Assembly (NCBI GenBank): GCA_965238175.1
Contig: CBDEGZ010000003.1
Coordinates: 396,357-460,356, forward strand
Source of the DNA: Gammaproteobacteria bacterium
GTDB taxonomy: Bacteria > Pseudomonadota > Gammaproteobacteria > CAJXQU01
Direction of reading: 5' to 3'
DNA length: 64,000 nt
Position numbers and translations under genes: made by a program. A model generated the notes under the pieces. It saw only the letters and a list, made by a program, of their open reading frames with translations, ran no database searches and was not told the DNA's origin. This document shows positions 3,648 to 43,995 of this stretch, in pieces; position 1 is the stretch's first letter; every line of letters starts with the position of its first letter.

Positions 3648-3813
3648 TCGGATCATAAAAACACTAAGTTTCAGGTAGGTAACCTTCATTTCTAGCTTTA
3701 TTTCCCTTTGGTTGAGACATTTCTTATTAACAGAGATTATTTTACAACATTTTGATAATCTAGATGTTATTTATTAATTCTTCAAATTTCATTAAAAATA
3801 CAATATCTCAGCC

Positions 3814-14414: not shown

Positions 14415-16082
<1,668 letters not shown>

Positions 16083-16104
16083 TTAAATTCGATTTTAGTT
16101 CTGA

Positions 16105-16392
16105 TTATTCGATAACGCCCATGATGTCATCTTCGCGCATGACAACCACTTCTTCACCATCAATTTTAATCTCAGTTCCAGAATATTTACCAAATAGAAC
16201 TGTATCGCCTACTTTCACATCAAGCGCTTGTATATTGCCTTGATCGTTAGCTTTACCAGAACCAGCAGCGATTACTTCGCCACGCATTGGTTTTTCAGTT
16301 GCAGAATCAGGGAGAACAATCCCGCCTGCACTTGTAGTTTCTTCTTCCATACGGCGTACAACAACGCGGTCATGTAATGGACGGATTTTCAT
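16105..16392 (-). CDS. groES: Co-chaperonin GroES
   Basis: 95 aa matching the GroES consensus [14 protein letters not shown]... Confidence 0.97.
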
Positions 16393-16480
16393 CTTTTAAG
16401 GTCTCCTAAAAACAGATAAAAGTTAAACAAACAGATTAAATTAGTAGCACTCTATCGAGGTGGTTGCTAATTATAGGTTT

Positions 16481-16510
16481 GCATATGGGGCTGTCAAGAT
16501 AAACTTCAAG
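16481..16510 (-). promoter_or_regulatory. Sigma-32 heat-shock promoter of groESL
   Basis: Minus strand reads CTTGAA-N14-CCCCATAT, matching the sigma-32 consensus CTTGAA / CCCCATnT. It lies about 90 nt upstream of the groES start. Confidence 0.6.
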
Positions 16511-16542
16511 TACAATTGGTCAATTAAAATAGAATTCCTTCA

Positions 16543-17022
16543 AAACCAGAGCTTTCAGGTGGATAAAATAAGATCACTTAGCCGTACCTTCATCAAAAGA
16601 AGTGAAAAACTTGCGCCTATCAATCTGCCACTTTCGCCACGCGAAAAAAGAGCCAAAGCAAAGAAAGCCTTGAAACGTCTGAGAACCATCGGCCACATCC
16701 TGCTCCGTGAACTCAGACACAAGCTCCCCAGTCACTGCCTTTCGAGTGCCATCAAAAAACCTTTTATGCTATGAGCGAGTACTGGCACAACAGCCCAAAG
16801 ATAAAAACAAAACCTACTCACTACATGACAACCATACTTTACCTGACGTATTCATGCATATCGAAACGTCACGGGCAAAGCCGTCCACAACCGTTTGCGT
16901 TCGAGACTATCGCAGCCATCATTGGCTATCTGAAATCAGATTTTCGGATATCAAGAAACTTCCTCAAAGGTATATCAGGCAATGAAATTAATCTGCTAAT
17001 GACAGCACTGTCTGGAACTTGA
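16543..17022 (+). pseudogene. IS5-family transposase remnant (frameshifted, no intact ORF)
   Basis: Three overlapping frame fragments are present. The last ends ...DFRISRNFLKGISGNEINLLMTALS, resembling the IS5/IS903-type C-terminus (…[27 protein letters not shown]). No intact DDE ORF and no clear inverted repeats were found. Confidence 0.4.
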
Positions 17023-17174
17023 AGAAATGGCTAGTCGCCATTTATCTGGCCTTATTTTTGTGGCTTAAAAGGTATGCTATACAGAATCAAAATCAACCCA
17101 GCATCAATGCAACGTTAAATCGAGGTTGCTCAGAGCCAAAGGCTTCTCTGGCAAATATCCATATCGTAAGTTGA

Positions 17175-17327
17175 AACTTTTTCAGAGGCGACTACTTTAG
17201 TGAATTTAATGCATTTTATGATGAGCGTGCACAAGCCTTACCGGATACGCTCCCTGAAATGTTCGAAAACCGCGCATGGAAAGAGGTTGTCGATAAGGCT
17301 GGCGGCGTTAGCATTCAGTACATATAA
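17175..17327 (+). pseudogene. Orphan C-terminal gene fragment (unknown protein)
   Basis: 50-codon stop-to-stop stretch NFFRGDYFSEFNAFYDERAQALPDTLPEMFENRAWKEVVDKAGGVSIQYI* with coding-like composition. It has no start codon or upstream reading frame. Confidence 0.25.
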
Positions 17328-17876
17328 CCAAGAAAGGAAAACAATAAATGTCATTAGAATATATCAATGTTTGTTTTAGAACAGCCGGACTTTAGATTGT
17401 GTTTCAATATTTTTACATATTGAAATTGAACCCGTTTTTTCAATCGGTGAAAAGCTTAATAAAATTAACGAAGAAGCCTATATGAGTGTCAAAGTCCAAA
17501 AACTGGACGCCCTTAGTAAATCGTAAAATTGAGAGTGTAGAAGTGATCTGGCATTGGGTGAGGCCGGTATATTCGAGAAGAAAACGTACTACCCTCAAAA
17601 CGTCTTACTAAAGTTTTCGGGTGAGGCCTCAGTCGTAATATCTACAATGGAAATAACTGATACTTCTCATTGGGGTATGGCTGACAATATTGTGGTATTT
17701 TTCAATGAACAAGTGGCTAGCAAATATAAGGCTTTAAATGCATAACAAAGCTGTCATAGGGACATTTTTTGCTTTGCTGTGTTGGGGGGTGGCTACGCCA
17801 CTTTACCTCAAAACCCCACTACACAAAAATGCCCTATACTGCAGCGTTATGTGATTACGAAAGTGAGTTCCAAGTA

Positions 17877-18317
17877 ATGAAAGGTGTAATATTCGTTGGT
17901 CTGCAAGCCAGTGGTAAGTCCTATTTTTATCTCAGGAAGCTTTATAAAACTCACCTACGCCTTAATATGGATATGCTAAAAACACGGCATAGGGAAAATA
18001 TTCTATTTAATGCATGCTTGGAATCGAAACAACCTGTTGTAATTGATAATACTAACTCTACGAAAAATGAGCGTGAAAAATACATTAGCGGTTTTAAGAA
18101 TCACCGTTTTGAGGTTATAGGGTTTTACTTTGCTTCCAGCTTGTCTGAATGCTTAGAAAGGAATGCATCCAGAAAGGGTAAAGAGAGAATACCAGACGTA
18201 GGTCTGAAAGGAACATACAGTAAGCTGGAATTGCCTACTTATTCTGAAGGTTTTGACAAGTTGTATTATGTATCCATGAAAAATGATGAATTTCTCATAG
18301 AGGAGTGGCAAAGATGA
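17877..18317 (+). CDS. Polynucleotide 5'-hydroxyl kinase (T4 Pnk kinase-domain-like P-loop protein)
   Basis: It has a Walker A motif GLQASGKS. VVIDNTN...ERNASRKGKERIPDVGLKGTY parallels T4 Pnk VIISDTNLN...[20 protein letters not shown]. The listed six-frame ORF begins at 17769, but the P-loop position favours Met at 17877. It overlaps the downstream TLP gene by 13 nt. Confidence 0.7.
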   Translation: MKGVIFVGLQASGKSYFYLRKLYKTHLRLNMDMLKTRHRENILFNACLESKQPVVIDNTNSTKNEREKYISGFKNHRFEVIGFYFASSLSECLERNASRKGKERIPDVGLKGTYSKLELPTYSEGFDKLYYVSMKNDEFLIEEWQR

Positions 18318-19078
18318 AGTTCAAGGAATTAGATAAGAAATTACGAGTTTTTGAAACCGCACATGATCATTGTGTTTTACCTGGCGTGTACATTGTAGCT
18401 AGAATTGACGGAAGATGTTTTACAACTTTAACCAAAGATAAACATCCGTTTGAAGCCCCCTATGACCCTAAGTTCAGAGATATGATGATTGAAACTGTGA
18501 AACATTTAATGCAATGTGGTTTCAAAGTTCTTTATGGATATACTCAAAGCGATGAAATATCACTGCTCTTAGATTTAAATGAGAATACATTCGAAAGAAA
18601 GGAACGAAAGATCAATTCAGTGCTAGCGGGAGAGGCAAGTGCGAAGTTTAGTTTGCTTCTTGGCGATATCGGAGCTTTTGATTGCCGTATTTGTCAACTT
18701 CCGAATAGGCAACTTGTAATCGACTACTTTCGCTGGAGAAACGAAGATGCCCATAGAAACGCCTTAAATTCCCACTGTTATTGGAGCCTTAGGAAGGAGG
18801 GTGTATCTCCAAAAGAGTCAGCTGCTACCTTTACAAAAATGTCTGTGGCGCAGAAAAATGAGTTCCTTTTTCAAAAAGGCACTAATTTTAATGATTTGCC
18901 AAGTTGGCAAAAAAGAGGACTGGGGGTGTATTGGGAGTCTTACGAAAAAGACGGCCTTAACCCAAGTACGAGGGAAAAGGTTAAAACTAATCGTAATCTT
19001 CTTAAGACCAATCTAGATCTCCCTATGAAAGAAAAATATAGCGATTTTATTCGTAACTTCGTGTCTGAACTCGTATAA
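18305..19078 (+). CDS. Thg1-like protein (TLP), tRNA 3'-5' nucleotidyltransferase
   Basis: MAKMKFKELDKK...YIVARIDGRCF...YGYTQSDEISLLL aligns with human and yeast Thg1 (MAKSKFEYV...VVVRLDGRNF...AYGQSDEYSFVF). The metal-binding Asp of RIDG and the SDE carboxylates are present. Confidence 0.85.
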   Translation: MAKMKFKELDKKLRVFETAHDHCVLPGVYIVARIDGRCFTTLTKDKHPFEAPYDPKFRDMMIETVKHLMQCGFKVLYGYTQSDEISLLLDLNENTFERKERKINSVLAGEASAKFSLLLGDIGAFDCRICQLPNRQLVIDYFRWRNEDAHRNALNSHCYWSLRKEGVSPKESAATFTKMSVAQKNEFLFQKGTNFNDLPSWQKRGLGVYWESYEKDGLNPSTREKVKTNRNLLKTNLDLPMKEKYSDFIRNFVSELV

Positions 19079-19231
19079 CAAACGGCTCTACACAAACACC
19101 CAAACCTACGAGGTTTTTGTGGATTTAGCTATGCTACACTTTACCATAAAACCTCTCCGGCTTCGGTGCTGGTAAGCCGAGCGCTAGGCTAAAAATTACT
19201 CATCTATATACATTTAATAAAGAGGATATAA

Positions 19232-20008
19232 GTGAAAACGTTCTTAAAAATACTTGCCGGTATAGGTGCTATAGTGGTAATTGTTATTGTTGCCGTATTA
19301 TTCATGACTTCTGGCATGTCTGACACGGCAGACAAGTTCTTTGAGTCTGTGAAATCTGATAATTATGATGAGGCGTACTCATTATTATCAGAAGACTTTA
19401 AGAACAATACAAGCAAGAGTCAACTTAAAGAATACCTAACTAAAAATGCGCTAACCCATTTTAAAAAAGCAAGTTGGGAAAGTCGATCTACTAATGGAGG
19501 ACGTGGTGAGTTAACAGGCTCTATTATAACTGAATCAGGTGGTGGTGTACCAGTTTCTCTTAGTTTCATTAAAGGCGAAAACGATTGGAAAATATACTCA
19601 ATTAGAAAGCCCACCTCTGGCATACAAGAAGAAACTGAAACTGCACAAATCCCATCCGAAAAAGACCAAGTCAAGCTAGTTAATGAATCTATGCATCTAT
19701 TTGCTGTTTCTGTAAAAGAAAAAAACATGTCTAAGATGTTTGATCATGTTTCAAACCTTTGGCAAAAGCAAATCAGCGTTATCGAATTTGATGAAATATT
19801 CGGCTCATTTTATCAATTTGGTGATGCACTAATGATACTGGATCAACACTCACCACAATTTTCAGAAAAAGGCTCAATCAATGAAGAAGGGGTTTTATTG
19901 CTAAAAGGTTTATACCCCACCAAACCAAGTCAATTATATTTTGAACAAAAATACATCTATGAGGGTTTAGGTTGGAAGTTAATAGGACTCAATGTCAATA
20001 TTAAATAG
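19232..20008 (+). CDS. Membrane-anchored hypothetical protein (N-terminal TM, two tandem NTF2-like/DUF4878-like repeats)
   Basis: 258 aa. An N-terminal TM helix (ILAGIGAIVVIVIVAVLFM) is followed by two similar segments of about 100 aa. An RBS (aaagaggat) precedes the start. Confidence 0.5.
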   Translation: MKTFLKILAGIGAIVVIVIVAVLFMTSGMSDTADKFFESVKSDNYDEAYSLLSEDFKNNTSKSQLKEYLTKNALTHFKKASWESRSTNGGRGELTGSIITESGGGVPVSLSFIKGENDWKIYSIRKPTSGIQEETETAQIPSEKDQVKLVNESMHLFAVSVKEKNMSKMFDHVSNLWQKQISVIEFDEIFGSFYQFGDALMILDQHSPQFSEKGSINEEGVLLLKGLYPTKPSQLYFEQKYIYEGLGWKLIGLNVNIK

Positions 20009-20126
20009 AAAGACTAACAAAAACATTAAGTCGTTTTCTGCACTCACTGGGGTGTTCCGCTCGCATCTCGCTACGCCCCCTTTATGTTGGCGTTACATTA
20101 ATGTTACATTGAATTTAGGTGAAAGA

Positions 20127-20900
20127 ATGAGCAAATACATGCTAGTTATTTTTGCGCTTACGTTTTCCTGCTTTGCTTTTTCTCAAGGTGAGCAAAGCTC
20201 TGCTAAATATGTGACATATGGAGAGCTAATTAACTCTTTAGAAGAAATCGCAAAAAATAGCTTTGAAGATTCTGAAGTTCTTAGACGTGAATTTGTTAAA
20301 TTACAAAAGTCTCATGATGTGTCAAGTAGTGAGAATATTTATCGTAAATTCGTGCGAGTGCGAATGGCTTTCGAGGCCACAAGAGATTCAGGATTATGGC
20401 AATTACGCTGGGCTGTAACGAACAAAGAACCAAATTCCAGTTCAATTTGGAGTCAATGGAATCATCTTTCAAATCCGAAGTATATTGAAGAAAATGATGC
20501 GGAGCCCACTGCTGTGGCGGAATGTGATGAGCTTTCGGCGTTATTTGCCTTCATTTCCAGAGGGTTAGGTGTGAAGAACGTCGGCCTCTTCTGGCCAACT
20601 TGGAACCATACTGTGGCCGTGTGGACGACGGAAAACAAGAACGGTAATCTTGTGCGTATTGTTATCCCTACATCTCAAATATTCATTAGCGAAAATGCAA
20701 CATTGGGCACTAAAGAGTTTGATCCTTATAAACAGAAAAATATTTATGAATATAGCCGTAAGGATATACAGAAAGATCATAAGATCTCAGCGGGGTTGGC
20801 GGAAATGATGATCCGGCAGGTTAAAGAATACGGCGCTAAGCCATCCTCTTATTTGCAAGACCGTAGAAATCGGCTATCTCAACTGTTTGGTGGATCATAA
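20127..20900 (+). CDS. Secreted hypothetical protein, possibly transglutaminase-like (papain-fold) family
   Basis: A signal peptide MSKYMLVIFALTFSCFAFSQ is preceded by an RBS (aggtgaaaga). The Cys context ECDELSALFAFISRGLG and a downstream His (WNHTVAVW) resemble TGc-superfamily catalytic motifs; this is recalled from memory rather than aligned. The listed six-frame ORF starts at 19992. Confidence 0.45.
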   Translation: MSKYMLVIFALTFSCFAFSQGEQSSAKYVTYGELINSLEEIAKNSFEDSEVLRREFVKLQKSHDVSSSENIYRKFVRVRMAFEATRDSGLWQLRWAVTNKEPNSSSIWSQWNHLSNPKYIEENDAEPTAVAECDELSALFAFISRGLGVKNVGLFWPTWNHTVAVWTTENKNGNLVRIVIPTSQIFISENATLGTKEFDPYKQKNIYEYSRKDIQKDHKISAGLAEMMIRQVKEYGAKPSSYLQDRRNRLSQLFGGS

Positions 20901-21574
20901 ACTTTAAGTCAGCAGGACGCCGCTCGCGGTGCCTCTTGTCGTCACCCATGCAATAAGCGATATAGCATTTCAAATAAAACTTTCACACAAGCCTAGTGAA
21001 AAAGATATTCTGGAAAATTTAGTGTCTGTTGGAAAGAAATTTTATTCAAACATTCAGTTTATGGAAAGTAGGCTTAAATAACTTAGGTATAAACAAGAAC
21101 AATTAAGAAGGACAAACCTCCGTAGCTTGCCCTCATTGCAGGCATTATGTGTATTGAGGATAATTAGTGACTTTAGAAAATCTAAATGATAACGAAATTA
21201 GTATTGTTGGCGAGTACCTAGATAATGCTGCAAATGGGCCATTTTTCCCAACTGGGAGTTTGAAACATTGTTTGGAGTTAGTAGAAAAGAAATCAAAAAT
21301 GTCGCAAATAACTTCCCCAATGTTGTGACAGTCCAGAAGAAAAAAATAATGATAGTTCGCTCATTATTAACAACACACTTGTTAGTTTAGTTGGTTACCC
21401 GCATCAATTCGATGGCAAATTGAAATGATTTAAAACTTTTAAAGGCCTTGGCTTCTTTGGCAATTCTGACCAGAATCAATAGTTCATCCAACAGCTCTCG
21501 TAAAACGAAAAGATGAGGTCATTTATCTCTTGCAGCATTGGCCTTCATAATCTGGGAAACTACTTCGCGACTTT

Positions 21575-22606
<1,032 letters not shown>

Positions 22607-22664
22607 TTATTGCCCCAATCGTACAATCATTAAGTGTCGTCGAAAGCGTGCTATTATACGAAGC

Positions 22665-23972
22665 ATGGTGCAATCCTCCAATGATATTATCCCTTTCCCA
22701 TCAAAACCACGTATTTATAAACGATCAGAGCACAATATTTCACGCGACGCCATCTCGGAACAAGCATTAAAAGTACTCTATCGACTCCAACAAGCAGGTT
22801 ACCAGGCGCATCTTGTTGGAGGTGGTGTACGTGATATTTTACTCGGCGTGGCTCCCAAAGATTTTGATATCGCGACCGATGCCAAGCCCGAACAGGTTCG
22901 TGAACTATTTCGAAATTGCAGATTAATCGGTCGTCGTTTTCGGCTTGCACACGTCCATTTTGGTCGTGAGATTATCGAAGTTGCAACGTTTCGGGCCAAT
23001 CATGAAACAGGCGGTGATCGATTAATCGAAGACGGTATGATCCTGCGTGACAATGTTTATGGTGATATTGATGATGATGTCTGGCGACGCGACTTTACTG
23101 TCAATGCGCTTTACTACAATATCGCCGATTTTTCGATCGTTGATTATGTCGGTGGCGTCGAAGATGTAAAAGCAGGGCTGATTAAATTCATCGGCGATCC
23201 GGAAGAACGTTACCGTGAAGATCCTGTGCGAATGCTACGCGCGATCAGATTCGCGGCTAAACTCGATTTCACAATCGATCGAGCTACAGAAAAGTCGATC
23301 TCGGAACTCACCTATCTGCTCGGCGACATTCCAACCGCGCGCTTATTTGAGGAAGTAAACAAACTCTTCCTCAGCGGTTATGCTCTAAAAACCTTTACGC
23401 AACTCCGTCATTACGGATTATTTGATCAATTATTTCCACAAGTTGAAAAGAGCCTGCAAGAAGAAAAAAATAGCTTTACAGAAAAAATATTGATCCAGGC
23501 GCTAAAAAATACCGATGAACGAATTGCGATCGGCAAACCAATTAACCCTGCTTTTCTATACTCGGTAATGTTGTGGCAACCAATGCAAGAACATCTCAAC
23601 CACTTCCTTAGCAATGGTGCCCACCCCGTAGAAGCTCAGCGCTTGGCCGCGGATACGGTCATCTCAAAACAAATCGCGAAAGTGGCTGTTCCGCGACGAT
23701 TTACTCATATGGTACGTGAGATCTGGGAACTGCAGCACCGCTTACAAAATCGACGTGGTAAGAAACCTTATAACCTACTACACAACAAACGTTTCCGGGC
23801 AGCGTATGACTTTTTGCTACTGCGGTCAGAAGTCGATGAAACCCAAAAAGAACTAGCTGATTGGTGGACTGAGTTTCAGGATGTTGATGAAGATCGTCAG
23901 CGTGAAATGCAAACCGGTTTACCTGCGGATAAATCAAAACGTCGTCGTTCAAGAAAACGCAAAAAGTCTTAA
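22665..23972 (+). CDS. pcnB: Poly(A) polymerase I
   Basis: HLVGGGVRDILLGVAPKDFDIATDA...RFRLAHVHFGREIIEVATFR is the PcnB signature. The start is placed at 22665 (MVQSS...) because the longer frame overlaps hemB. Confidence 0.85.
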   Translation: MVQSSNDIIPFPSKPRIYKRSEHNISRDAISEQALKVLYRLQQAGYQAHLVGGGVRDILLGVAPKDFDIATDAKPEQVRELFRNCRLIGRRFRLAHVHFGREIIEVATFRANHETGGDRLIEDGMILRDNVYGDIDDDVWRRDFTVNALYYNIADFSIVDYVGGVEDVKAGLIKFIGDPEERYREDPVRMLRAIRFAAKLDFTIDRATEKSISELTYLLGDIPTARLFEEVNKLFLSGYALKTFTQLRHYGLFDQLFPQVEKSLQEEKNSFTEKILIQALKNTDERIAIGKPINPAFLYSVMLWQPMQEHLNHFLSNGAHPVEAQRLAADTVISKQIAKVAVPRRFTHMVREIWELQHRLQNRRGKKPYNLLHNKRFRAAYDFLLLRSEVDETQKELADWWTEFQDVDEDRQREMQTGLPADKSKRRRSRKRKKS

Positions 23973-24037
23973 TTTTAAAGCTTTAAATCACCGAAAACGG
24001 CACTGAATCTGTCCGAACATTTCAGTACAATAATCAA

Positions 24038-24535
24038 ATGTCAGAATTCAACGCCTATATTGGTCTCGGAAGTAATCTCGAAGATCCTATCAAACAAGTT
24101 CGTACCGCGCTCCAAGAGTTAGATCAAATTAAATCAAGCAAATTGATCAAACATTCATCGCTTTATAAAAGTGATCCTGTTGGGCCTGCTGGTCAGCCGG
24201 ATTACATTAATGCCGTTGCTGAGATCAAAACGCGACTCAAGCCAATAACTTTATTACAAGCTTTGCAGGCAATAGAACAGGATCATCAACGCGTTCGTTT
24301 AAAACGTTGGGGTCCTCGAACGTTGGATCTTGATCTCTTGATTTATGCGGATCAAAAAATTGATGAGCCGGATTTAATCGTCCCACATATTATGATCGCA
24401 GAACGTTCATTTGTACTTTACCCTCTGGCAGAAATTGCATCTGATATCCAAATTCCAGGGTTAGCATCAATGCCAGAGTTGCTTAAAAACGTGTCCAGAA
24501 AAGGACTTTCTAAATTATCAAACGAGACCTTTTAG
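24038..24535 (+). CDS. folK: 2-amino-4-hydroxy-6-hydroxymethyldihydropteridine pyrophosphokinase
   Basis: 165 aa with AYIGLGSNLEDP...PRTLDLDLL, the HPPK consensus. Confidence 0.85.
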   Translation: MSEFNAYIGLGSNLEDPIKQVRTALQELDQIKSSKLIKHSSLYKSDPVGPAGQPDYINAVAEIKTRLKPITLLQALQAIEQDHQRVRLKRWGPRTLDLDLLIYADQKIDEPDLIVPHIMIAERSFVLYPLAEIASDIQIPGLASMPELLKNVSRKGLSKLSNETF

Positions 24536-24570
24536 TTTGGTTTGTGTAGTTAGTTTAAGAGTAGCAAGGA

Positions 24571-25212
24571 ATGAATAATCCTCTCAAATATATTGTGGTT
24601 GAAGGTTCGATTGGGGTTGGAAAAACAACACTGGCGAAACGCTTAGCAAAGCATTTTGGATCGGATCTTATCCTCGAAGGCGCAGCCGAAAATCCTTTCT
24701 TACCCTCATTTTATGAGAATCCAGCGGGTGCGGCACTCGCCGCTCAGCTTTTCTTCTTATTTCAGCGCATTGAACAGATCAAATCGATGATTCAGGACGA
24801 CATGTTTAATCCAGTGCGCGTTGCTGATTTTATGCTCGAAAAAGATCGCTTGTTTGCGGAACTGACATTGACAGAAGAGGAACTGAAGTTATACGACCAG
24901 GTCTACGCTGAAATGGCTGTTGATGCACCAACCCCCGATCTGGTGATCTATTTGCAAGCACCCATAGAAATTTTGTTAGCGCGGATAAAAAAACGCGGAA
25001 TTGATCATGAACAGGGAATGGATGCAGATTATCTTCAACGATTAAGTGAAGCCTATGTGCGATTTTTCTATCACTACAAAAAAGCGCCTTTGCTGATCAT
25101 AAACACAACCGAGGTAAATTTTGCCGAAGGTGAAGAAGATTTTGCTATGCTACTCTCTCACATCAGAGAATTACCCAGAGGCGTAACCTACTTTAATCAA
25201 ATGACGAATTAA
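24571..25212 (+). CDS. Deoxynucleoside kinase (dNK family)
   Basis: P-loop YIVVEGSIGVGKTTLAKRLA with dNK-family downstream motifs. Confidence 0.75.
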   Translation: MNNPLKYIVVEGSIGVGKTTLAKRLAKHFGSDLILEGAAENPFLPSFYENPAGAALAAQLFFLFQRIEQIKSMIQDDMFNPVRVADFMLEKDRLFAELTLTEEELKLYDQVYAEMAVDAPTPDLVIYLQAPIEILLARIKKRGIDHEQGMDADYLQRLSEAYVRFFYHYKKAPLLIINTTEVNFAEGEEDFAMLLSHIRELPRGVTYFNQMTN

Positions 25213-25214
25213 AC

Positions 25215-26033
25215 ATGAAAAAAGTATCTCCAAAAAAATCCCAAAAAATATCAGTCACCCGACTACGTCAAATGAAAAAAGAGGGCGAAAAAATCGCCAT
25301 TTTAACGTCTTATGACGCGACCTTTTCCGCATTATTAGATGAAGCAGGTGTCGATGTACAACTTGTGGGGGATTCGCTTGGCATGGTCATCCACGGTCAA
25401 GATTCCACCGTCTCCGTGACTATCGAAGATATGATCTACCATTCTTCCATAGTCAGTCAGGCAAACAAGCGTAGTTTGATCATCACTGATATGCCGTTTA
25501 TGAGCTATGCAACACCAGAACAAGCCATGACAAACGCTGCGAGATTAATGAGTGAAGGCGGGGCAGAAGTGATCAAAATGGAAGGTGGTGCATGGTTAGA
25601 AGAGACCATCTCTCTACTTAGTTCACGGGGAATTCCTGTCTGTGCTCATTTAGGTTTATTACCACAATCGGTTCATAAATTAGGTGGTTATCGAGTTCAT
25701 GGTCGTGATAAGACTAGTGCAAAACAGATCCTGAAAGATGCAAAAAATCTGGAAAAAGCCGGCGCTGAAATAATGGTTATTGAGCTTGTGACCAGAAAGC
25801 TTGCTGCAGAGATCTGCGAGGCTGTTTCAATTCCCGTTATTGGAATTGGGGCGGGTTCAGATTGCGACGGCCAAGTGTTGGTTTTACATGACATGCTTGG
25901 AATTGGTGGGCGTTACATGAAAATGTGTAAAAACTTTATGGCCGAAAGTGACAGCATTCAAAACGCGATCAAAAACTATGTGGAAGAAGTCAAAACCGGC
26001 TCTTTCCCTGCTAATGAGCACGGTTTCGACTAA
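25215..26033 (+). CDS. panB: 3-methyl-2-oxobutanoate hydroxymethyltransferase
   Basis: 272 aa with the PanB consensus (ILTSYDATFSALLDEAGVDV...). Its stop overlaps the panC start. Confidence 0.9.
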   Translation: MKKVSPKKSQKISVTRLRQMKKEGEKIAILTSYDATFSALLDEAGVDVQLVGDSLGMVIHGQDSTVSVTIEDMIYHSSIVSQANKRSLIITDMPFMSYATPEQAMTNAARLMSEGGAEVIKMEGGAWLEETISLLSSRGIPVCAHLGLLPQSVHKLGGYRVHGRDKTSAKQILKDAKNLEKAGAEIMVIELVTRKLAAEICEAVSIPVIGIGAGSDCDGQVLVLHDMLGIGGRYMKMCKNFMAESDSIQNAIKNYVEEVKTGSFPANEHGFD

Positions 26034-26890
26034 TGAATACCATTATCCACGTTGCCGAACTAAGAAGTCAGGTGAAAAAATGGCGCATGGCAGGCGAAAG
26101 TATTTGCTTAGTTCCGACGATGGGAAATCTGCATGAAGGTCATCTTGCATTGGTCGACCGGGCTAAACAGTTATCTGATCATGTCATCGCGTCGATTTTT
26201 GTTAATCCGATGCAATTTATTCAGGGCGAAGATTTTGCAACCTATCCACGAACAATGGAGCAGGATAGCCTCGCTTTATTTGAACGGGGTGTGAACACTC
26301 TATTCTCGCCCGAAGTTGATGAAGTTTATCCCGCTGGTTTAGAAAACCACACCGAAGTTTCAGTTCCGGCATTGGATGGTTTTCTCTGCGGCGCTTCAAG
26401 ACCAGGACATTTCAGCGGTGTTGCTACGGTCGTTTCAAAATTATTCAATCTAGTACAACCTGACACGGCCATCTTTGGTCAAAAAGATTATCAGCAACTG
26501 CTAGTGATCAAACACATGGTCAACGATTTATGCATGCCTATCGACATACAATCTTTACCAACCGTCAGAGAAGAAGATGGGCTCGCACTCAGCTCACGTA
26601 ATGGTTATTTAACTGAAAAAGATCGAAAAACAGCGCCAGCGATATATCAACAGCTGACCGAAATAACTGAGCAGATCAAAAATGGAAATATAAACTTTTC
26701 TGATCTGGAAAAAACCGGTAAAGAAAGTTTAAAACAACTGGGTTTTGAACCTGAATATTTAAGTATTCGTCGTCAAGATGATCTCAATATCGCAGATCAA
26801 AAACGCGATCAAAAACTCATTATTCTTGTCGCCGCACGACTAGGCACAACTCGTCTTATCGACAATATATTGGTATCTCGATCATTATGA
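26033..26890 (+). CDS. panC: Pantoate--beta-alanine ligase
   Basis: 285 aa with LVPTMGNLHEGHLALV (HIGH-type motif). Confidence 0.9.
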   Translation: MNTIIHVAELRSQVKKWRMAGESICLVPTMGNLHEGHLALVDRAKQLSDHVIASIFVNPMQFIQGEDFATYPRTMEQDSLALFERGVNTLFSPEVDEVYPAGLENHTEVSVPALDGFLCGASRPGHFSGVATVVSKLFNLVQPDTAIFGQKDYQQLLVIKHMVNDLCMPIDIQSLPTVREEDGLALSSRNGYLTEKDRKTAPAIYQQLTEITEQIKNGNINFSDLEKTGKESLKQLGFEPEYLSIRRQDDLNIADQKRDQKLIILVAARLGTTRLIDNILVSRSL

Positions 26891-27648
26891 CTATTGAAAA
26901 AGAAACCGCGAACAGGGCAAATACAGCAGCCGTTATTATCATCGGAAACGAAATTCTTTCTGGTCGCACACAGGATATTAACCTTTCTTATCTGGGAAAA
27001 CGTTTTGATCAATTAGGTATTAGTTTGGTCGAAGCGCGCATTGTTCGCGATGTTCCGGAAGAAATCATTGATGCGGTTAATCATCTAAGAAACGAGTATG
27101 AGTATGTATTCACTACTGGTGGAATCGGTCCTACACATGACGATATAACTACCGACTGTATCGCTCAAGCTTTTGGCGTTAACATTGAAATTAACCCTGA
27201 AGCAGTAAAATACGTTGCCCATGGTGATAAGCCAGATCAAATTTCGGACGCTCGAATGAAAATGGCAAAAATCCCAGTCGGTGCAACACTGGTGGATAAT
27301 CCTGTCAGCGGTGCACCAGGCTATCGACTTGAAAATGTCTATGTCTTCGCCGGCGTACCCAACATTATGCAAGCAATGTTTGAAGGAATGGCACATGAAC
27401 TTGTTGGTGGCGATCCTGTTTTGACCAAAACCGTCAGCACACACATGCGCGAAAGCCAGATAGCTGAAGGATTAGAAAAACTACAAAATGAATATCCAGA
27501 TATCAATATTGGAAGCTACCCGTTTTATAAAGAGCAACGCTTTGGTGTGAACATTGTCACTCGTGGCACAGATCAAAAGGAACTTGAAACGCTTGATCAA
27601 AAATTACGTGATTTGATTATTAAACTTGGACATCAACCAATCAAATAA
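26887..27648 (+). CDS. CinA-like N-terminal (MoCF-binding) domain protein
   Basis: 253 aa with AVIIIGNEILSGRTQDINLSYLGKRF...TTGGIGPTHDDIT, the competence/damage-inducible CinA N-domain / molybdopterin-binding fold. Confidence 0.65.
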   Translation: MTIEKETANRANTAAVIIIGNEILSGRTQDINLSYLGKRFDQLGISLVEARIVRDVPEEIIDAVNHLRNEYEYVFTTGGIGPTHDDITTDCIAQAFGVNIEINPEAVKYVAHGDKPDQISDARMKMAKIPVGATLVDNPVSGAPGYRLENVYVFAGVPNIMQAMFEGMAHELVGGDPVLTKTVSTHMRESQIAEGLEKLQNEYPDINIGSYPFYKEQRFGVNIVTRGTDQKELETLDQKLRDLIIKLGHQPIK

Positions 27649-27675
27649 TGGTAAAGAAGGCAAAAATGAGCTGGC

Positions 27676-29262
27676 TTATAAATCCTTAAATTTCAGATTA
27701 TATTTATTTAAGTAAACTCTTATTCGCTGTGAATCATTATTAGTTTCCTTTTTTGAACTACTTCGATTAAAAAGTTGCCTACCTGCATCAGCCATACTTT
27801 TGCTTTCTTTGCAGAGACGAATAACATGTGTAAGTTGTGCCTGTTCAAACAAATCTAGATTTTCATAAGCTCCACTTGTGAGCGTATTTTTAAGCAGCTC
27901 ATCATCACTATTGCTTTTAGAATCTTTGTAACCATTCCAATCCATCTGTAATCGCTGTATTTCATGATCAACAATACTCTCCGTAATTCGGCCACCCGTC
28001 GCTAAGGTTGCCATTCGGGTGATACTCGAATTCAGATCACGAAAGTTTGCTTTCCATTCAGCGAAAGAACTTAACGAGAACGCAAGGTATTTTGATTTTG
28101 CCGAGCTGTTAAAACCAATTTTATGATTCATATCCTGTGCATAGCGTTGAAGTTCATATTCTATATTTGGTTCAATATCTTCATAACGTTCTTTGAGTGA
28201 AGGCAGCTGGTAGTTCCACAAGTTGATTCTGGCTAGTAGATCTTCTCTGAATTTACCTTCTTCAACGAGTTGATAGAGATTGCGATTTGTTCCTGCGATG
28301 AGCTGAAAATCGCTGCTGACTTTTTGATCGGAACCAAACGGAGTAAACACTTTTTCTTCAATCGCTCGTAGTAACATGGCTTGTTCGTCTAAACCGAGCT
28401 CACCGATTTCATCCAAAAAAAGTAACCCGTGATTTGCTTCTAATAATAATCCATTTCGATTATTCACAGCTCCTGTATAGGCGCCCTTTATATGCCCAAA
28501 CAGCGTAGACATGGCATTATCACCACGCAATGTTGCGCAATTAACTTCGACTAATTGCCCTTTAAGCTGTGTGCGCTGCTGTTTTAATTCGTATATTTTT
28601 TTGGCTAAATGTGACTTGCCAACACCAGTTGGTCCCATCAATAAAATAGGCGCTTTTGATCGAATAGCAACTTGCTCAATTTCATCAATAAGTTGGTTAT
28701 ATCGTTTATTGCGGGTTTCGATTCCATCTTTAAGATAACTAATGTCTTGTTGGGCATCGCGGTTAAATCGAGAGGCAATTTGATCATAACGAGAAAGATC
28801 CAGATCAATAGTAAATAACTCACCATGCGCACCTTCTTTACTCGGTGCAGTCTGAATCAGTTTACCCGGGAAATAATTCGCTTCAGTCAGCAGATAAATA
28901 CAGATCTGTGCGACGTGCGTTCCTGTCGTGATATGAAAATGGTAGTTGTTATTTTCAGGATCAAAATTGTAAGCATGTGAAAAGTCGTGCAGTTGACTAT
29001 AGACCTGCTCAAAATCCCAGGGATCATCATAGTCTACAAGGTAAATAGAAATCTCAATATCCAGGCAAAGAGTGCTGATGTCTTTTAAAGTGAGGTCTAA
29101 TAATGCCTGATCTTGTTTGTGATAGATCAGGATCAATTCATCAACTGGAAACTCATGGTGCATCAACAATGACATGGTTGGACGCCAGCGTAACCAGCGC
29201 TTACTTCCAAGGCCTACATTATCAAGACGAGAGCCTAAAATCCCAATAACTATATTATTCAT
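27676..29262 (-). CDS. rtcR: Sigma-54-dependent transcriptional regulator RtcR
   Basis: 528 aa, co-linear with E. coli RtcR throughout. Shared segments include GSKRWLRWRPT, HITTGTHVAQICIYLL, GPTGVGKSHLA, EVNCATLRGDNAMSTLFGHIKGAYTGA, FREDLLARINLW and TRMATLATGGRIT. Confidence 0.9.
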   Translation of the reverse strand: MNNIVIGILGSRLDNVGLGSKRWLRWRPTMSLLMHHEFPVDELILIYHKQDQALLDLTLKDISTLCLDIEISIYLVDYDDPWDFEQVYSQLHDFSHAYNFDPENNNYHFHITTGTHVAQICIYLLTEANYFPGKLIQTAPSKEGAHGELFTIDLDLSRYDQIASRFNRDAQQDISYLKDGIETRNKRYNQLIDEIEQVAIRSKAPILLMGPTGVGKSHLAKKIYELKQQRTQLKGQLVEVNCATLRGDNAMSTLFGHIKGAYTGAVNNRNGLLLEANHGLLFLDEIGELGLDEQAMLLRAIEEKVFTPFGSDQKVSSDFQLIAGTNRNLYQLVEEGKFREDLLARINLWNYQLPSLKERYEDIEPNIEYELQRYAQDMNHKIGFNSSAKSKYLAFSLSSFAEWKANFRDLNSSITRMATLATGGRITESIVDHEIQRLQMDWNGYKDSKSNSDDELLKNTLTSGAYENLDLFEQAQLTHVIRLCKESKSMADAGRQLFNRSSSKKETNNDSQRIRVYLNKYNLKFKDL

Positions 29263-29401
29263 AAATATATAATTATATATTTATAGATAGATTTCAAGAA
29301 TATTATCTATCATCATATTTCTACTAAAACACATCATAAAAAAAATATTAATTTATATATTTCAATAACTTAAATATAAATTTCCAAGCTTGCAAAAAAG
29401 C

Positions 29402-29417
29402 TGGCAGGCCCATTGCA
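29402..29417 (+). promoter_or_regulatory. Sigma-54 (-24/-12) promoter for rtcB
   Basis: TGGCAG-gccca-TTGCA matches TGGCAC-N5-TTGCW. It lies about 70 nt upstream of the rtcB start, in the AT-rich rtcR/rtcB divergent region. Confidence 0.65.
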
Positions 29418-29484
29418 ATAATCTCTATCGAAAACAATTGAAACGAATACTAAATTACTAAACAAGAATAGAAGGAAGATCAAA

Positions 29485-30738
29485 ATGGACCAGCAAAACA
29501 ACATTAAAAACTCAAGCAACTATGACGTGTTATACGCAAATATTTCGAGAGTACCGGTTAAGTCATGGACCAAAGGTGTGCCGTTTGATCAGAATTCAAA
29601 GGATCAATTATTGAGCCTTTCGCAAATGCCTTTTATCCATAAATGGATTGCGGCAATGCCTGATGTTCATGTTGGGAAAGGGGCCACGATAGGAAGCGTC
29701 ATCCCAACATTTGGTGCGGTTATTCCTGCTGCCGTCGGTGTGGATTTAGGTTGCGGAATGATGGCAGCAAAAACGACTCTGACGGCCAATGACCTGCCTG
29801 ACGATTTAGCTGATATGCGTAGCGCAATTGAAAGTTTGGTTCCACATGGTCGCTCTGCTCGACGTCGTGGTGGTCGTGATAAAGGTAGCTGGGGAAATAT
29901 ACCAGATGATGTGGCTGAAGCATGGTCGCCACTAGCTGATGGATTTGATCGCCTGGTTGAAAAGCATCCGTTTTTGAAGAATACCAATAACGTCGCGCAT
30001 TTAGGAACATTGGGAACAGGTAATCACTTTGTAGAGATCTGCCTGGACGAAAATGAGGATGTCTGGGTGATGTTACATAGCGGATCTCGTGGTGTGGGTA
30101 ATGCGATTGGAAGACATTTTATCGAAAAAGCACAACGAGATATGGAACGCTGGTTTATTCATTTGCCTGATCGAGATCTGGCTTATATACCAGAGGGCAG
30201 CGAGCAGTTTGGTCACTATATTTCTGCAGTGTCATGGGCACAAGATTTTGCCCGCATTAATCGTGAAATAATGATGCAGCGAACATTGCAAGCCATGACT
30301 GATGTTTTACCAATAGCATTTACGGCTGATGTAGAAGCGGTGAATTGTCACCATAACTACATCCGTAAAGAGAACCACTACGACGAAAACGTGTGGGTCA
30401 CTCGAAAAGGTGCGGTGAGTGCTCGCAAAGGCGAAATGGGCATTATCCCAGGAAGTATGGGTGCGAAATCATTCATCGTTCGAGGGCTTGGAAATGAAGA
30501 AAGCTTTTGTAGTTGTAGCCATGGAGCAGGACGTGTGATGTCACGTACTCAAGCAAAAAAAGTAGTTTCATTAGCAGAACACGTTCAAGCCACGAAAGGT
30601 GTGGAATGCCGTAAAGATGCGAGTGTAATTGATGAAACTCCAGCAGCGTATAAACCGATTGAACAAGTCATGGAAGCACAAAATGATCTTGTGGAAATAG
30701 TACATACCTTAAAGCAGGTCGTGTGCGTAAAAGGATAA
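29485..30738 (+). CDS. rtcB: RNA-splicing ligase RtcB (3'-phosphate/5'-hydroxyl RNA ligase)
   Basis: 417 aa, near-colinear with E. coli RtcB. Shared segments include MPDVHVGKGATIGSVIPT, GTLGTGNHFVEICLDE, HSGSRGVGNAIG, NCHHNY and SFCSCSHGAGRVMSRT. Confidence 0.92.
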   Translation: MDQQNNIKNSSNYDVLYANISRVPVKSWTKGVPFDQNSKDQLLSLSQMPFIHKWIAAMPDVHVGKGATIGSVIPTFGAVIPAAVGVDLGCGMMAAKTTLTANDLPDDLADMRSAIESLVPHGRSARRRGGRDKGSWGNIPDDVAEAWSPLADGFDRLVEKHPFLKNTNNVAHLGTLGTGNHFVEICLDENEDVWVMLHSGSRGVGNAIGRHFIEKAQRDMERWFIHLPDRDLAYIPEGSEQFGHYISAVSWAQDFARINREIMMQRTLQAMTDVLPIAFTADVEAVNCHHNYIRKENHYDENVWVTRKGAVSARKGEMGIIPGSMGAKSFIVRGLGNEESFCSCSHGAGRVMSRTQAKKVVSLAEHVQATKGVECRKDASVIDETPAAYKPIEQVMEAQNDLVEIVHTLKQVVCVKG

Positions 30739-30753
30739 GCGCGGAAAGCAGAT

Positions 30754-30778
30754 GCTGGAATGGGCCAGCACCTTTTAG
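30754..30778 (+). terminator. Putative terminator after rtcB
   Basis: GCTGG-aatggg-CCAGC followed by ACCTTTT. The U-tract is short. Confidence 0.35.
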
Positions 30779-30930
30779 GAAAGAAGAATTCTGTATATTT
30801 CTGTTAAAAAAGTAGTTAGGAAAATACAACAAAGAATCTCAATCTTTACAAACTTGCGGAGCTGGTTTTAACCAGCCTGACACCAGGTTCTTTGAGCCAA
30901 TGTGTATCGGTTTGTGCGGGTTAGATAACT

Positions 30931-30996
30931 ATCGTTATAGCTAAATGGTAAAGCGCTGGAAACAGTCATGTGATGGTTCGACTCCATCTAACGATG
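30931..30996 (+). ncRNA. Truncated tRNA-like element (66 nt): intact acceptor, D-like and T arms, no normal anticodon arm
   Basis: The 7-bp acceptor (ATCGTTA/TAACGAT) is perfect and is followed by U8A9. D-like GCT-AAATGGTAA-AGC. T-arm GATGG-TTCGACT-CCATC. Only 16 nt separate the D arm from the T stem, where about 22 are expected. No CCA is present. Confidence 0.5.
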
Positions 30997-30998
30997 CT

Positions 30999-31072
30999 AT
31001 CACTATAGCTCATATGGTTAGAGCAGTTGACTCAAAATCAATTTGTAGCCGGTTCGAATCCGGCTAGTGAAC
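30999..31072 (+). tRNA. Non-canonical tRNA-like gene (74 nt), Met/Ile-family-like body with anticodon loop CTCAAAA (CAA) and an A1·A72 mismatch
   Basis: D-arm AGCTCATATGGTTAGAGCA resembles E. coli elongator tRNA-Met (AGCTCAGTTGGTTAGAGCA). The anticodon arm GTTGA-CTCAAAA-TCAAT gives anticodon CAA with a 5-nt variable loop, so it is not a class-II tRNA-Leu. T-arm GCCGG-TTCGAAT-CCGGC. The acceptor ATCACTA/TAGTGAA has a terminal A·A mismatch. It starts 2 nt after the preceding tRNA-like element and encodes no CCA. Confidence 0.5.
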
Positions 31073-31159
31073 CGCCGAAAGGCACCAACTTACACATTAA
31101 AGTGTATTGAAATAATGTCTGAAAGGACAATGTAAAACGCTCCAGACAGCAGATCATTT

Positions 31160-31234
31160 ATGAAAAATATTCTAGTTGTTGAAGATTTCACCTTCTTCGG
31201 AAGAGGCAGTTCAGAGATAACAAGAGTGGCCTGA
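31160..31234 (+). pseudogene. Truncated response-regulator receiver-domain stub
   Basis: The 24-codon ORF MKNILVVEDFTFFGRGSSEITRVA* has a typical receiver-domain N-terminus (MKxILVVED) that terminates after about 20 aa. Confidence 0.3.
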
Positions 31235-31418
31235 ATAGGTCTGAATAGACTTGAAGCGTCAACATGCAAACGACCTTTGTGGTGGGTTTGTAACTTGCGA
31301 ATTTATGAGACTTTTCAATAGAGATAATTCTGTTGTCATCGCCATAATCATCCCAGGATACATAAACCAACGAGCTAGTTTGTATGTGGAGCGTTTACAT
31401 TTTTTAAGGAGAATTAGT

Positions 31419-32582
31419 ATGTTTTTTATGAAAAAAATTATCGTTCCTGAAACGCATCATGCTTTGTTATTCAAAGACGAGCCGTTCAGTAATGTACTTA
31501 TGCCAGGTGTTTATAATTTGCTCGACTTAAGAAATCGAATTAGATTTTCTCTAGTTGATATTTCTAACACCTTAGAAAATGGTGTAAATGATCAGGCGAT
31601 GAAAGTTTTAAAACTACATCCTGAAAAAATGAACGCACACGTACAAATCTGGGAAACCGGAGAACATGAAGTAGGACTTGCTTATCAAGACAATATCTTG
31701 AAAGAAATTAAAGCACCTGCCGAACGTGGCGCTTATTGGACAGGTTTTGGTGAAGTAACGATCAAAAAAATCGATATTTCTGAAATCTTCAAGCTGGATA
31801 AAACACTCGCAAGAATGGTGTTAGCCGCTAAAGACTCCTTGCTTAAAAACTCAGCAATTAGCGCAGTGACTACGGCTACTATTCCAGAACGTCATTTTGG
31901 TTTTTTGGAAGTTGGTGGTGAACAGCACTCTAAGTTAGACGCAGGTATCCATGTTTGGTGGAAATTCAATCGTAACCTAAAGGTTAAACAGATTGATTTA
32001 AGGCTACAAAACATGGAAGTTAATGGACAAGAAATTTTGACCAAAGACCGTGTTGGTTTGCGTGTTAATTTATCTGCTACCTGGCAAGTCAGTGATGCAA
32101 AACGTGTGTCTGCAGAATTAGCAGATCATACTGATTATTTGTACCGTGAATTGCAGTTAGCATTGCGTACGATTGTTTCCACTCAAACATTGGATGAGTT
32201 GCTTGTCGATAAAAATAAACTGAATCAAAAAATTCAAGAGATTGTTGTCAGTAAAGCCTCTCAATACGGCATTGAGTTAAAAACGGTTGGTGCAAGAGAT
32301 ATTGTTTTACCCGGTGAAATGAAAACGATTTTGAGCCAAGTTGTTGAAGCCGAAAAAATGGCTGAAGCAAATTTGATCAAACGTAGAGAAGAAACCCAGG
32401 CGACAAGATCATTGCACAACACTGCAAAAGTGATGGAAGGAAACCCAACCCTTTTACGTTTGAAAGAACTGGAAGTGCTAGAAAAAATCACATCACAGAT
32501 CAGTACGCTAAATGTTTATGGTGGCTTGGATGGCGTTATGAACGACATGGTTCGTATCCCATCGACAGCTGCTAAGACATGA
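31419..32582 (+). CDS. SPFH/band-7 (stomatin/flotillin-like) domain protein
   Basis: The start is placed at 31419 (MFFMKK...), where a strong RBS AAGGAGAA lies 6 nt upstream. An SPFH-like core is followed by a coiled-coil-rich tail (…LSQVVEAEKMAEANLIKRREETQATR…). The listed six-frame ORF begins at 31251. Confidence 0.65.
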   Translation: MFFMKKIIVPETHHALLFKDEPFSNVLMPGVYNLLDLRNRIRFSLVDISNTLENGVNDQAMKVLKLHPEKMNAHVQIWETGEHEVGLAYQDNILKEIKAPAERGAYWTGFGEVTIKKIDISEIFKLDKTLARMVLAAKDSLLKNSAISAVTTATIPERHFGFLEVGGEQHSKLDAGIHVWWKFNRNLKVKQIDLRLQNMEVNGQEILTKDRVGLRVNLSATWQVSDAKRVSAELADHTDYLYRELQLALRTIVSTQTLDELLVDKNKLNQKIQEIVVSKASQYGIELKTVGARDIVLPGEMKTILSQVVEAEKMAEANLIKRREETQATRSLHNTAKVMEGNPTLLRLKELEVLEKITSQISTLNVYGGLDGVMNDMVRIPSTAAKT

Positions 32583-32672
32583 TGTTTTTTTAGAATGGAG
32601 TTAAGCACAAAACTTAGCTCCATTTCTCAACTCTCTTTTAATCAAATCTATAGAAACCAAAATTAAGAAGGT

Positions 32673-41570: not shown

Positions 41571-43976
<2,406 letters not shown>

Positions 43977-43995
43977 CTAGTGTTTAGTGCGAGCA

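Follow-up and report, generated by a model that had tools for sequence, protein, structure and literature searches.

Does a bacterial chromosome that carries two sets of RNA-repair genes about 9 kb apart hold one repair system or two? We address this question for a stretch of 64,000 nucleotides (nt) from a gammaproteobacterial assembly (GCA_965238175.1, contig CBDEGZ010000003.1, positions 396,357 to 460,356 of the forward strand; G+C content of the organism ~40%), which in its full length is called the window below. Between groESL and an IS481-type transposase gene the window encodes a polynucleotide-kinase-like enzyme (Pnk) paired with a Thg1-like protein (TLP), here called module A, and the RNA ligase RtcB together with its regulator RtcR, tRNA-like RNAs and a Band-7/SPFH protein (module B). 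A preliminary description of this DNA had seen here a concentration of end-healing and end-sealing functions that reflects selection for tRNA repair, and the genes and RNAs that it named are all present between groESL and the IS481 element, as confirmed by Pfam, NCBIfam and Rfam. Our comparison with related loci suggests that these are probably two unrelated RNA-repair modules, laterally acquired into separate places of a housekeeping region near the replication origin, whose closeness is incidental or at most a weak form of clustering, and that they do not make up a single system. The parts of the two modules, and one gene that follows them, are these:

17877-18317, plus strand: polynucleotide-kinase-like P-loop kinase, 146 aa, kinase domain only (Pfam AAA_33, 5.8e-13)
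18314-19078, plus strand: predicted TLP, 254 aa, putative 3'-5' RNA polymerase (Pfam Thg1 and Thg1C)
27676-29262, minus strand: rtcR, CARF / sigma-54 AAA+ / helix-turn-helix activator, divergent from rtcB (Pfam, NCBIfam, PADLOC)
29402-29417, plus strand: sigma-54 -24/-12 promoter element TGGCAGgcccaTTGCA, 83 nt 5' of the rtcB ATG
29485-30738, plus strand: rtcB, predicted ligase of 3'-phosphate/2',3'-cyclic-phosphate to 5'-OH RNA ends, 417 aa
30856-30883, plus strand: putative leader hairpin (GCGGAGC-hairpin-CTGACAC) 5' of the tRNA-like pair, also found in L090-L094 and L092
30931-30996, plus strand: tRNA-like unit 1 (Rfam tRNA, 48.4 bits)
30999-31072, plus strand: tRNA-like unit 2, 74 nt (Rfam tRNA, 57.9 bits; called "tRNA-Leu(CAA)" by ARAGORN)
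31074-31128, plus strand: two small GNRA-type hairpins after unit 2, read from the sequence (GCCgaaaGGC at 31074-31083 and GUCUgaaaGGAC at 31117-31128)
31419-32582, plus strand: Band-7/SPFH protein, 387 aa, no obvious membrane anchor (PF01145, 94 bits)
32679-33104, plus strand: zf_Tbcl Lys/Arg-rich treble-clef zinc-finger protein, 141 aa (Pfam, 49 bits)

Module A measures only 1.2 kb, and the ATG of its TLP gene overlaps the stop codon of the kinase gene (ATGA). The kinase starts at the ATG at 17877, where its homologs begin, and not at the TTG at 17769; the extent of 17769-31072 given in the preliminary description thus contains real genes but begins too early, and it also ends too early because the rtc module runs past 31072 through the Band-7 gene. 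The TLP start (ATG 18314) was set from homologs and from a 254-aa database protein (P0001) that is 100% identical to the window TLP over 254 aa. The kinase matches the kinase part of the PNK-3'Pase model TIGR01663 (5.3e-10) and the kinase domain of mammalian PNKP (3e-5), with the P-loop GLQASGKS, the Asp in LNMDML and VVIDNTN all aligned, and neither the Pfam and NCBIfam scans nor the PNKP alignment show a phosphatase domain in it. Its partner scores well above the cut-offs of PF04446 Thg1 (108 bits; cut-off 29.2) and PF14413 Thg1C (52.7 bits; cut-off 26.3), and the motifs IDGRxF and SDEIS are conserved in the alignment to its best solved relatives, the TLPs of Methanosarcina acetivorans (5AXK, 7.6e-30) and Bacillus thuringiensis (4KGK, 3.6e-20). 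With human and yeast Thg1 matching at about 4e-20, the window protein appears closer to archaeal and bacterial TLPs than to eukaryotic Thg1. TLPs have been studied biochemically for B. thuringiensis, Myxococcus xanthus and M. acetivorans.

A scan of one genome per species for related TLPs gave 80 loci (L001-L080; TLPs 63-87% identical) from at least 7 phyla, with Gammaproteobacteria, Cyanobacteria, Planctomycetota, Bacteroidota, Myxococcota, Bacillota and Acidobacteriota among the sources. The kinase gene lies immediately upstream of the TLP gene and in the same orientation in 75 of these 80 loci, and no other window gene is common to any of them. Even for the closest contig (L161; TLP 91% identical) the DNA match is limited to 17872-19081, with unrelated flanks on both sides. 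Named relatives of the TLP come from Motilimonas, Microbulbifer, Hahella, Photobacterium, Methylomicrobium and Thiodiazotropha. Judged from these sequence comparisons, Pnk-TLP is a compact and apparently mobile two-gene cassette. The TLP subfamily is unusually conserved for a patchy accessory gene (63-91% identity across phyla, L161 included), a sign that it has spread widely in recent times, is very strongly constrained, or both.

Some loci of module A have neighbours of interest in their own right. In three loci from Gammaproteobacteria (L002:7459-7987, L007:9006-9529 and L013:284-1387), Pnk-TLP is immediately preceded by a mini-array of tRNA genes, 5-8 in number and of the same orientation (Lys, Gly, Asn, His, Thr, Cys and others). 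L013 also carries a gene for an RNase Z-like protein with a metallo-beta-lactamase fold straight after the TLP gene; RtcB is present in L002, as are a metallophosphoesterase and a second kinase of the AAA_33 family.

Module B spans 4.95 kb (27676-32624). RtcR matches the Pfam models RtcR (234 bits) and Sigma54_activat (164 bits), the NCBIfam equivalog RNA_repair_RtcR (NF038308, 752.8 bits; cut-off 650) and the RtcR model of PADLOC (786 bits). The promoter element has the form TGGCAG-N5-TTGCA, is the sole one-mismatch match on the plus strand of the region, and has counterparts (TGGCA-N6-TTGC) in most sister loci with RtcR, RtcB and SPFH, no more than 130 nt 5' of rtcB; the proposal of the preliminary description that rtcB is under RtcR control is well supported by this recurring motif, which probably marks a sigma-54 promoter. 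A simple terminator scan found no terminator on the plus strand from rtcB to the end of the SPFH gene. RtcB matches PF01139 over its full length (427 bits, model positions 1-426), and alignment to TTHA1785 and to RtcB of Pyrococcus horikoshii shows that the motifs GCGM, GNHF, HSGSRG, HHNY and SHGAGR, which cover the metal-binding Cys/His residues and the GMP-accepting His, have been kept.

Like module A, module B has sharp boundaries of its own. Its closest relative (L081) matches the window at 27676-30776, 30831-31407 and 31419-32624 but nowhere else, and the L081 copy sits among wholly different genes. Our sample of 80 metagenome loci with related RtcB proteins contains three arrangements. 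The one seen in the window—rtcR, rtcB, tandem tRNA-likes, SPFH—is found in about 20 of the 80 loci, with RtcB proteins 71-84% identical. The second consists of a long tRNA array followed by rtcB, one tRNA and the SPFH gene, without rtcR. The third combines rtcR, Ro60, Y RNAs and rtcB; its RtcB proteins are about 65% identical, and the YrlA RNA of L145 is confirmed by Rfam. The tRNA arrays of the second arrangement comprise 9-22 seemingly complete tRNA genes (L107-L115, L125, L113, L154), and these sister loci lack the sigma-54 motif as well as rtcR; in L146 such an array adjoins rtcR. Long tRNA arrays linked to rtcB have been published for cyanobacteria (PMC8421152), and the version that contains SPFH is possibly worth a separate look.

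The RNAs between rtcB and the SPFH gene are the most distinctive part of module B. We aligned the two adjacent cloverleaves of 18 loci and compared them with 500 shuffles and with controls in which pairing partners were slid. In the tandem pair, 96% of cells form a standard pair and 23 of the 34 base pairs show compensatory change, which none of the 500 shuffles matches, while slid-partner controls are at most 45% paired; with the unit-2 acceptor stem included, 93% are paired (0/500 shuffles). The tRNA-like RNAs noticed in the preliminary description are therefore real, conserved structured RNAs, as shown by covariation across 18 loci. With a covariance model (R1), the score is 133.5 bits for the window pair, 116-160 bits for sister pairs and 99.7 bits for the divergent pair of L098. 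Since ordinary tandem tRNAs reach up to 108 bits, this model separates the band 7-associated (b7a) pairs from them by score only and not categorically. No pair scoring in the b7a range was found by R1 in the TLP loci.

Unit 1 has a 7-bp acceptor stem (covarying) with D and T arms. The window copy is degenerate, with a 4-bp stem and GAAA tetraloop instead of an anticodon arm and with GCUA where NCCA is expected; an encoded CCA follows unit 1 in about half of the loci and is absent here. Unit 2 has an invariant D arm, a nearly invariant T arm and an A-rich tail in place of CCA. Its acceptor stem is only 5-6 bp long (6 bp in the window, with a terminal A.A mismatch), and positions 1 and 72 are unpaired in 11 of 15 sequences. 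The anticodon stem of unit 2 covaries, and its loop differs in almost every orthologous locus (CAA, CAT, GTT, AAG, TGG, TGC, ATT, GAAA tetraloops and a 5-nt loop are seen). Because the anticodon loops vary so freely, the pair is not a decoding one. Two more conventional identities were rejected: unit 2 is not a canonical tRNA-Leu(CAA), given its class-I variable region in place of the long variable arm of a real tRNA-Leu, its mostly unpaired 1-72 position and its non-conserved anticodon, and a reading of the pair as YrlA reaches only 22.6 bits in Rfam against a gathering score of 69. Sister loci carry hairpins equivalent to the two that follow unit 2 in the window (TACC...GGTA, GCCCgaaaGGGC), as compared by eye and without statistics. 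The whole rtcB-SPFH spacer is 680 nt long, and its conservation (69% identity to L081 at 30831-31407) extends beyond just the tRNA-like units. L081 has an additional T-loop-like element about 270 nt further upstream.

The Band-7/SPFH protein encoded next is highly conserved, and its gene lies downstream of rtcB and tRNA-likes in 24 of the 80 RtcB loci; named relatives come from Thiothrix, Thiolinea, Methylothermaceae, Gallionella and Cellvibrio. In an AlphaFold2 model (pLDDT 80), N-terminal domains rich in beta structure are combined with an SPFH core and a long helix. In Foldseek searches, stomatin, HflK/C, prohibitin and erlin match the SPFH part and the long helix, and the major vault protein aligns across the entire length (TMq 0.41-0.44) at an identity of about 11%. 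The model would fit a protein that forms a cage or scaffold, and we predict that it is the partner of the tRNA-like RNAs. The zinc-finger gene that follows is at most an occasional accessory of the module, because homologs stand beside rtcB in only two other loci (L097, 1210-1617; L160, 5487-5870) and because it lies outside the segment shared with L081, whose DNA homology stops at 32624, before this gene; no TLP locus has it. Its position relative to rtcB differs among the three occurrences: behind the SPFH gene, between rtcB and the tRNA-likes, or on the upstream side of rtcB.

Are modules A and B parts of one whole? In chemical terms they are hard to combine. The ligation that RtcB carries out is between a 3'-phosphate or cyclic-phosphate end and a 5'-OH end, and a 5'-phosphate blocks it. 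Because RtcB needs the very 5'-OH that Pnk removes, the modules represent alternative routes and not one pathway. The preliminary description had credited the region with the complete chemistry for reversing the damage done by anticodon nucleases and ribotoxins, which was overstated: the product of Pnk is no substrate of RtcB, and the Pnk branch has neither a ligase nor a 3'-phosphatase partner in the window. Pfam was scanned over the window open reading frames (ORFs) of at least 130 aa, with the urease structural and accessory genes (53875-59046) outside the scan, and PADLOC was run on ten proteins of the modules and their surroundings. Anticodon nucleases, HEPN toxins, Hen1 and RtcA, all of which the preliminary description had proposed to look for, are absent from the ORFs scanned with Pfam and from the module proteins run through PADLOC, as is any ATP-dependent ligase from the former; the strong RtcR match of PADLOC is accompanied by a single weak one, to the dNK-like kinase described below.

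The distribution of the modules points the same way. We counted co-occurrence on loci and not on whole genomes. Modules A and B stand together in none of the 160 related loci: there is no rtcR or same-type rtcB in the 80 TLP loci, and no Pnk or TLP in the 80 RtcB loci, so that the correlated occurrence of Pnk-TLP and rtcRB as neighbours that might have been anticipated is not seen. The nearest named relatives of TLP and SPFH have no genus in common. Homology breaks off sharply at the edges of either module, each is regulated on its own, and the two are separated by nine housekeeping genes, with opposite-strand genes among them. Hence, two bona fide RNA-repair modules with intact motifs are indeed present, as the preliminary description had it, but the idea of a single selected cluster finds no support in the 160 loci or in the separate boundaries.

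Several observations nevertheless weigh against two wholly unrelated modules and would favor an RNA-repair island, whose modules cooperate against ribotoxins (for example, via a shared Band-7/tRNA-like platform or shared induction) and whose proximity has been kept by selection or co-transfer. Another RNA-repair module lies no more than 10 kb away in 13 of the 80 Pnk-TLP loci, from Gammaproteobacteria, Planctomycetota, Bacillota and Acidobacteriota: RtcB at 2-3 kb in two loci (L002, L020), an RNA ligase (Rnl) with an HD-kinase in four (L007, L037, L051, L062), Pnkp-Hen1 in seven (L025/L027/L028, L034, L037, L063, L075) and Band-7 directly upstream in one (L079). These 13 loci exceed random placement, and proximity to a ligase module may therefore be weakly selected; loose clustering of repair functions is a real, recurring tendency, and an association of Thg1 with RNA ligase has been reported earlier (PMC2904730). 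Moreover, we estimate that a gap of at most 8.6 kb in a 3.33-Mb replicon has a small a priori probability, roughly 0.5%, for one pre-specified pair, a figure that ignores the look-elsewhere effect; a concentration beyond chance is not established. We consider such an island unlikely, since the exact combination is found in 0/160 related loci, the RtcBs near TLP elsewhere (L002, L020) are only 27-29% identical to that of the window and come without RtcR, and the intervening genes, the separate boundaries with different nearest relatives and the blocking of RtcB by a Pnk-made 5'-phosphate all speak against it. The remaining point in its favor is L079, a Sedimentisphaerales metagenome-assembled genome in which Pnk-TLP comes straight after a Band-7 gene that itself follows tRNA(-like) genes (2200-4870, with a class-I-length "tRNA-Leu(TAG)" and a tRNA-Tyr; a long-stem structured RNA is possible at about 2560-2680). 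This hints at a Band-7/tRNA-like module that is connected with Pnk-TLP where others have RtcB, and at module types that can share parts. One could imagine a vault-like ribonucleoprotein platform of soluble Band-7 protein and tandem tRNA-likes that takes different enzymes, RtcB in most genomes and Pnk-TLP in others such as L079; in the window both enzyme sets would share one such platform, unit 2, frayed at the 5' end by its very sequence, would serve the kinase and TLP as a substrate, guide or sensor of their own, and the neighbourhood would be a functional unit. This scenario seems to us distinctly improbable.

Other alternatives concern one module each. Pnk-TLP could serve housekeeping quality control—the G-1 of tRNA-His, or the trimming and repair of processing errors—without relation to toxins or phage. 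The family is annotated in databases as tRNA(His) guanylyltransferase, some TLPs add G-1 in vitro or in yeast (PMC6471195), and in L002, L007 and L072 a tRNA-His gene is found a short way upstream of the cassette. However, the G-1 of bacterial tRNA-His is normally genome-encoded, the patchy distribution with 63-91% identity across phyla and an always new context is the signature of an accessory, transferable function, and the cassette recurs beside the Pnkp-Hen1, Rnl and RtcB repair modules. Its obligatory coupling to a 5'-OH kinase also points to nuclease-generated ends (PMC2904730), and we thus give very little credence to a housekeeping role. Even less plausible, to the point of being hardly tenable, is that the tRNA-likes neighbour rtcB by chance and have no role, being normal tRNA genes or ones in decay (a tRNA-Leu(CAA) and a pseudogene, for instance). 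Both units score above the Rfam gathering score for tRNA, ARAGORN makes its tRNA-Leu(CAA) call, and real tRNA arrays adjoin rtcB in other loci, an association that is published (PMC8421152). Yet the pair is found at the same rtcB-SPFH position in about 20 loci with covarying stems, its anticodon loops are unconstrained and sometimes mere GAAA tetraloops, unit 1 of the window has no anticodon loop at all, and unit 2 combines a Leu anticodon with a class-I variable region. The ARAGORN label is misleading because the loop varies, the acceptor is frayed and no CCA is encoded.

Under the reading of two separate modules, each would have its own mode of action. In module A, the kinase would turn an RNA 5'-OH into a 5'-phosphate, and the translationally coupled TLP would activate this phosphate and rebuild missing 5' nucleotides of tRNA acceptor stems in 3'-to-5' direction with the 3' strand as template. 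In module B, the CARF domain of RtcR would sense damaged RNA; RtcR of Salmonella responds to tRNA fragments that end in a cyclic phosphate. RtcR would then fire the sigma-54 promoter to give a single transcript of rtcB, the tandem tRNA-likes, the soluble Band-7/SPFH gene and possibly the zinc-finger gene, and RtcB would directly seal 2',3'-cyclic-phosphate or 3'-phosphate ends to 5'-OH ends. Most likely, the tRNA-like RNAs and an oligomeric SPFH protein would act as scaffold, cofactor or decoy for the ligase. The modules may thus deal with different lesions, RtcB with nicks of which both halves persist and Pnk-TLP with 5'-truncated tRNAs, and they would compete for 5'-OH ends without one feeding the other.

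The surroundings of the two modules were determined from the six-frame ORFs of the window, which were scanned with Pfam and NCBIfam:

14415-16392, minus strand: groEL/groES (ORF calls with Pfam and NCBIfam)
about 16400-17870: stretch of 1.4 kb without recognisable genes, between groES and the kinase gene
19232-20900, plus strand: two unrelated envelope-type ORFs (19232-20008 and 19992-20900)
21575-22570, minus strand: hemB
22533-27648, plus strand: pcnB, folK, a dNK-like kinase gene, panB, panC and a CinA-like gene
33290-34324, plus strand: IS481-type transposase (Pfam), downstream of the rtc module

The interleaving with housekeeping genes that had been described earlier is borne out by Pfam, which identifies hemB, pcnB, folK, panB, panC, the dNK-like and the CinA-like gene. 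The remaining window is housekeeping as well, with lipopolysaccharide heptosyltransferases, glnE, a bio operon, ctaA, gyrB-recF-dnaN-dnaA (41571-47768; yidC and mnmE beyond), urease and a urea transporter. Because gyrB-recF-dnaN-dnaA, yidC and mnmE are present, the window lies near the chromosomal replication origin, and both repair modules are therefore origin-proximal. The gene-less stretch at 16400-17870 holds just short overlapping ORFs, one of them with a transposase-like RLRTIGHILLRELRHKL stretch; its part from 16400 to 17760, a suspected insertion sequence remnant, gave no Pfam family and no match in a plasmid collection. The stretch may be a decayed mobile element that marks the insertion site of the cassette.

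Some neighbouring genes were considered as further parts of the modules and rejected. The ORFs at 19232-20008 and 19992-20900 have homologs in 0/80 TLP loci and no significant family matches, and the homology to L161 stops before them at 19081. The genes for pcnB and the dNK-like kinase stand in a standard pcnB-folK/panBC housekeeping setting and are absent from the related module loci. The dNK-like gene (24571-25212, between folK and panB) gives the weak PADLOC match mentioned above, to VakA with 46 bits, and most likely encodes an ordinary nucleoside kinase. Outside this region, 55588-55873 on the plus strand is a full-length Rfam match (95 bits) to the 5' ureB small RNA of Helicobacter, antisense to the gene for the large urease subunit (54323-56023, minus strand) in a host genome that is not Helicobacter; what is conserved here is probably the coding sequence and not a small RNA.

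Taken together, the finding is mostly ordinary, in that two published, predicted repair modules happen to be neighbours. Both belong to kinds that have already been described by computational prediction and are typical of horizontally spread, conflict-related systems. The value of the locus lies in a clean and compact example of an RtcR-RtcB/b7a-tRNA/Band-7 module with its promoter, a covariation-backed tandem RNA and a soluble SPFH protein of vault- or stomatin-like predicted fold. A genome with both modules is well suited to ask whether RtcB by sealing and TLP by 5'-rebuilding deal with separate classes of tRNA damage and what the tRNA mimics do; the function of these tandem mimics and of the soluble Band-7 protein is the most interesting point.

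Compared to known systems, module A has the same two-gene architecture and predicted chemistry (5'-OH to 5'-phosphate, then templated 3'-5' addition) as the Thg1-PNK operons of Anantharaman, Iyer & Aravind (2010, Biol Direct 5:43; PMC2904730), and nothing essential differs. It shares the logic of end healing by a 5' kinase with Pnkp-Hen1 and Pnkp1-Rnl-Hen1, which adjoin Pnk-TLP in 7/80 loci, but the window kinase lacks a phosphatase or ligase domain, and the window ORFs scanned hold no Hen1. Module B invites comparison with the rtcR-(rsr-yrlBA)-rtcBA operon of Salmonella and E. coli, which combines Ro60, Y RNA, RtcB and RtcA (Hughes et al. 2020, PMC7790460). In both, RtcR is divergent from an rtcB operon with tRNA-mimicking noncoding RNAs and a putative RNA-binding scaffold protein. 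However, no Ro60/TROVE or RtcA was found among the window ORFs scanned, and the scaffold would be Band-7 instead of TROVE, while sister loci with a 65%-identical RtcB, such as L145, do carry Ro60 and YrlA. The vault particle consists of the major vault protein, the TROVE protein TEP1 and vault RNA. Its resemblance, and that of SPFH cages, to the predicted fold of a Band-7 protein whose gene is linked to a small structured RNA is suggested here by genes and a structural model, at an identity to major vault protein of just about 11%, with modest TM-scores and no evident membrane anchor in the Band-7 protein. The closest match to module B is the system of RtcB beside Band-7 and a predicted band 7-associated tRNA that a later preprint credits to Burroughs & Aravind (2016, NAR 44:8525) and describes as predicted and not yet validated experimentally (bioRxiv 10.1101/312249). 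The window likewise has rtcB and a Band-7 gene with a tRNA-like noncoding RNA between them. It differs from the system as summarised there in the form that this RNA takes in the window and about 20 sister loci, a tandem of two units with flanking hairpins and free anticodon loops, in its apparent control by RtcR and sigma-54 and in coming without RtcA, and we claim no novelty over the 2016 paper for any of these traits.

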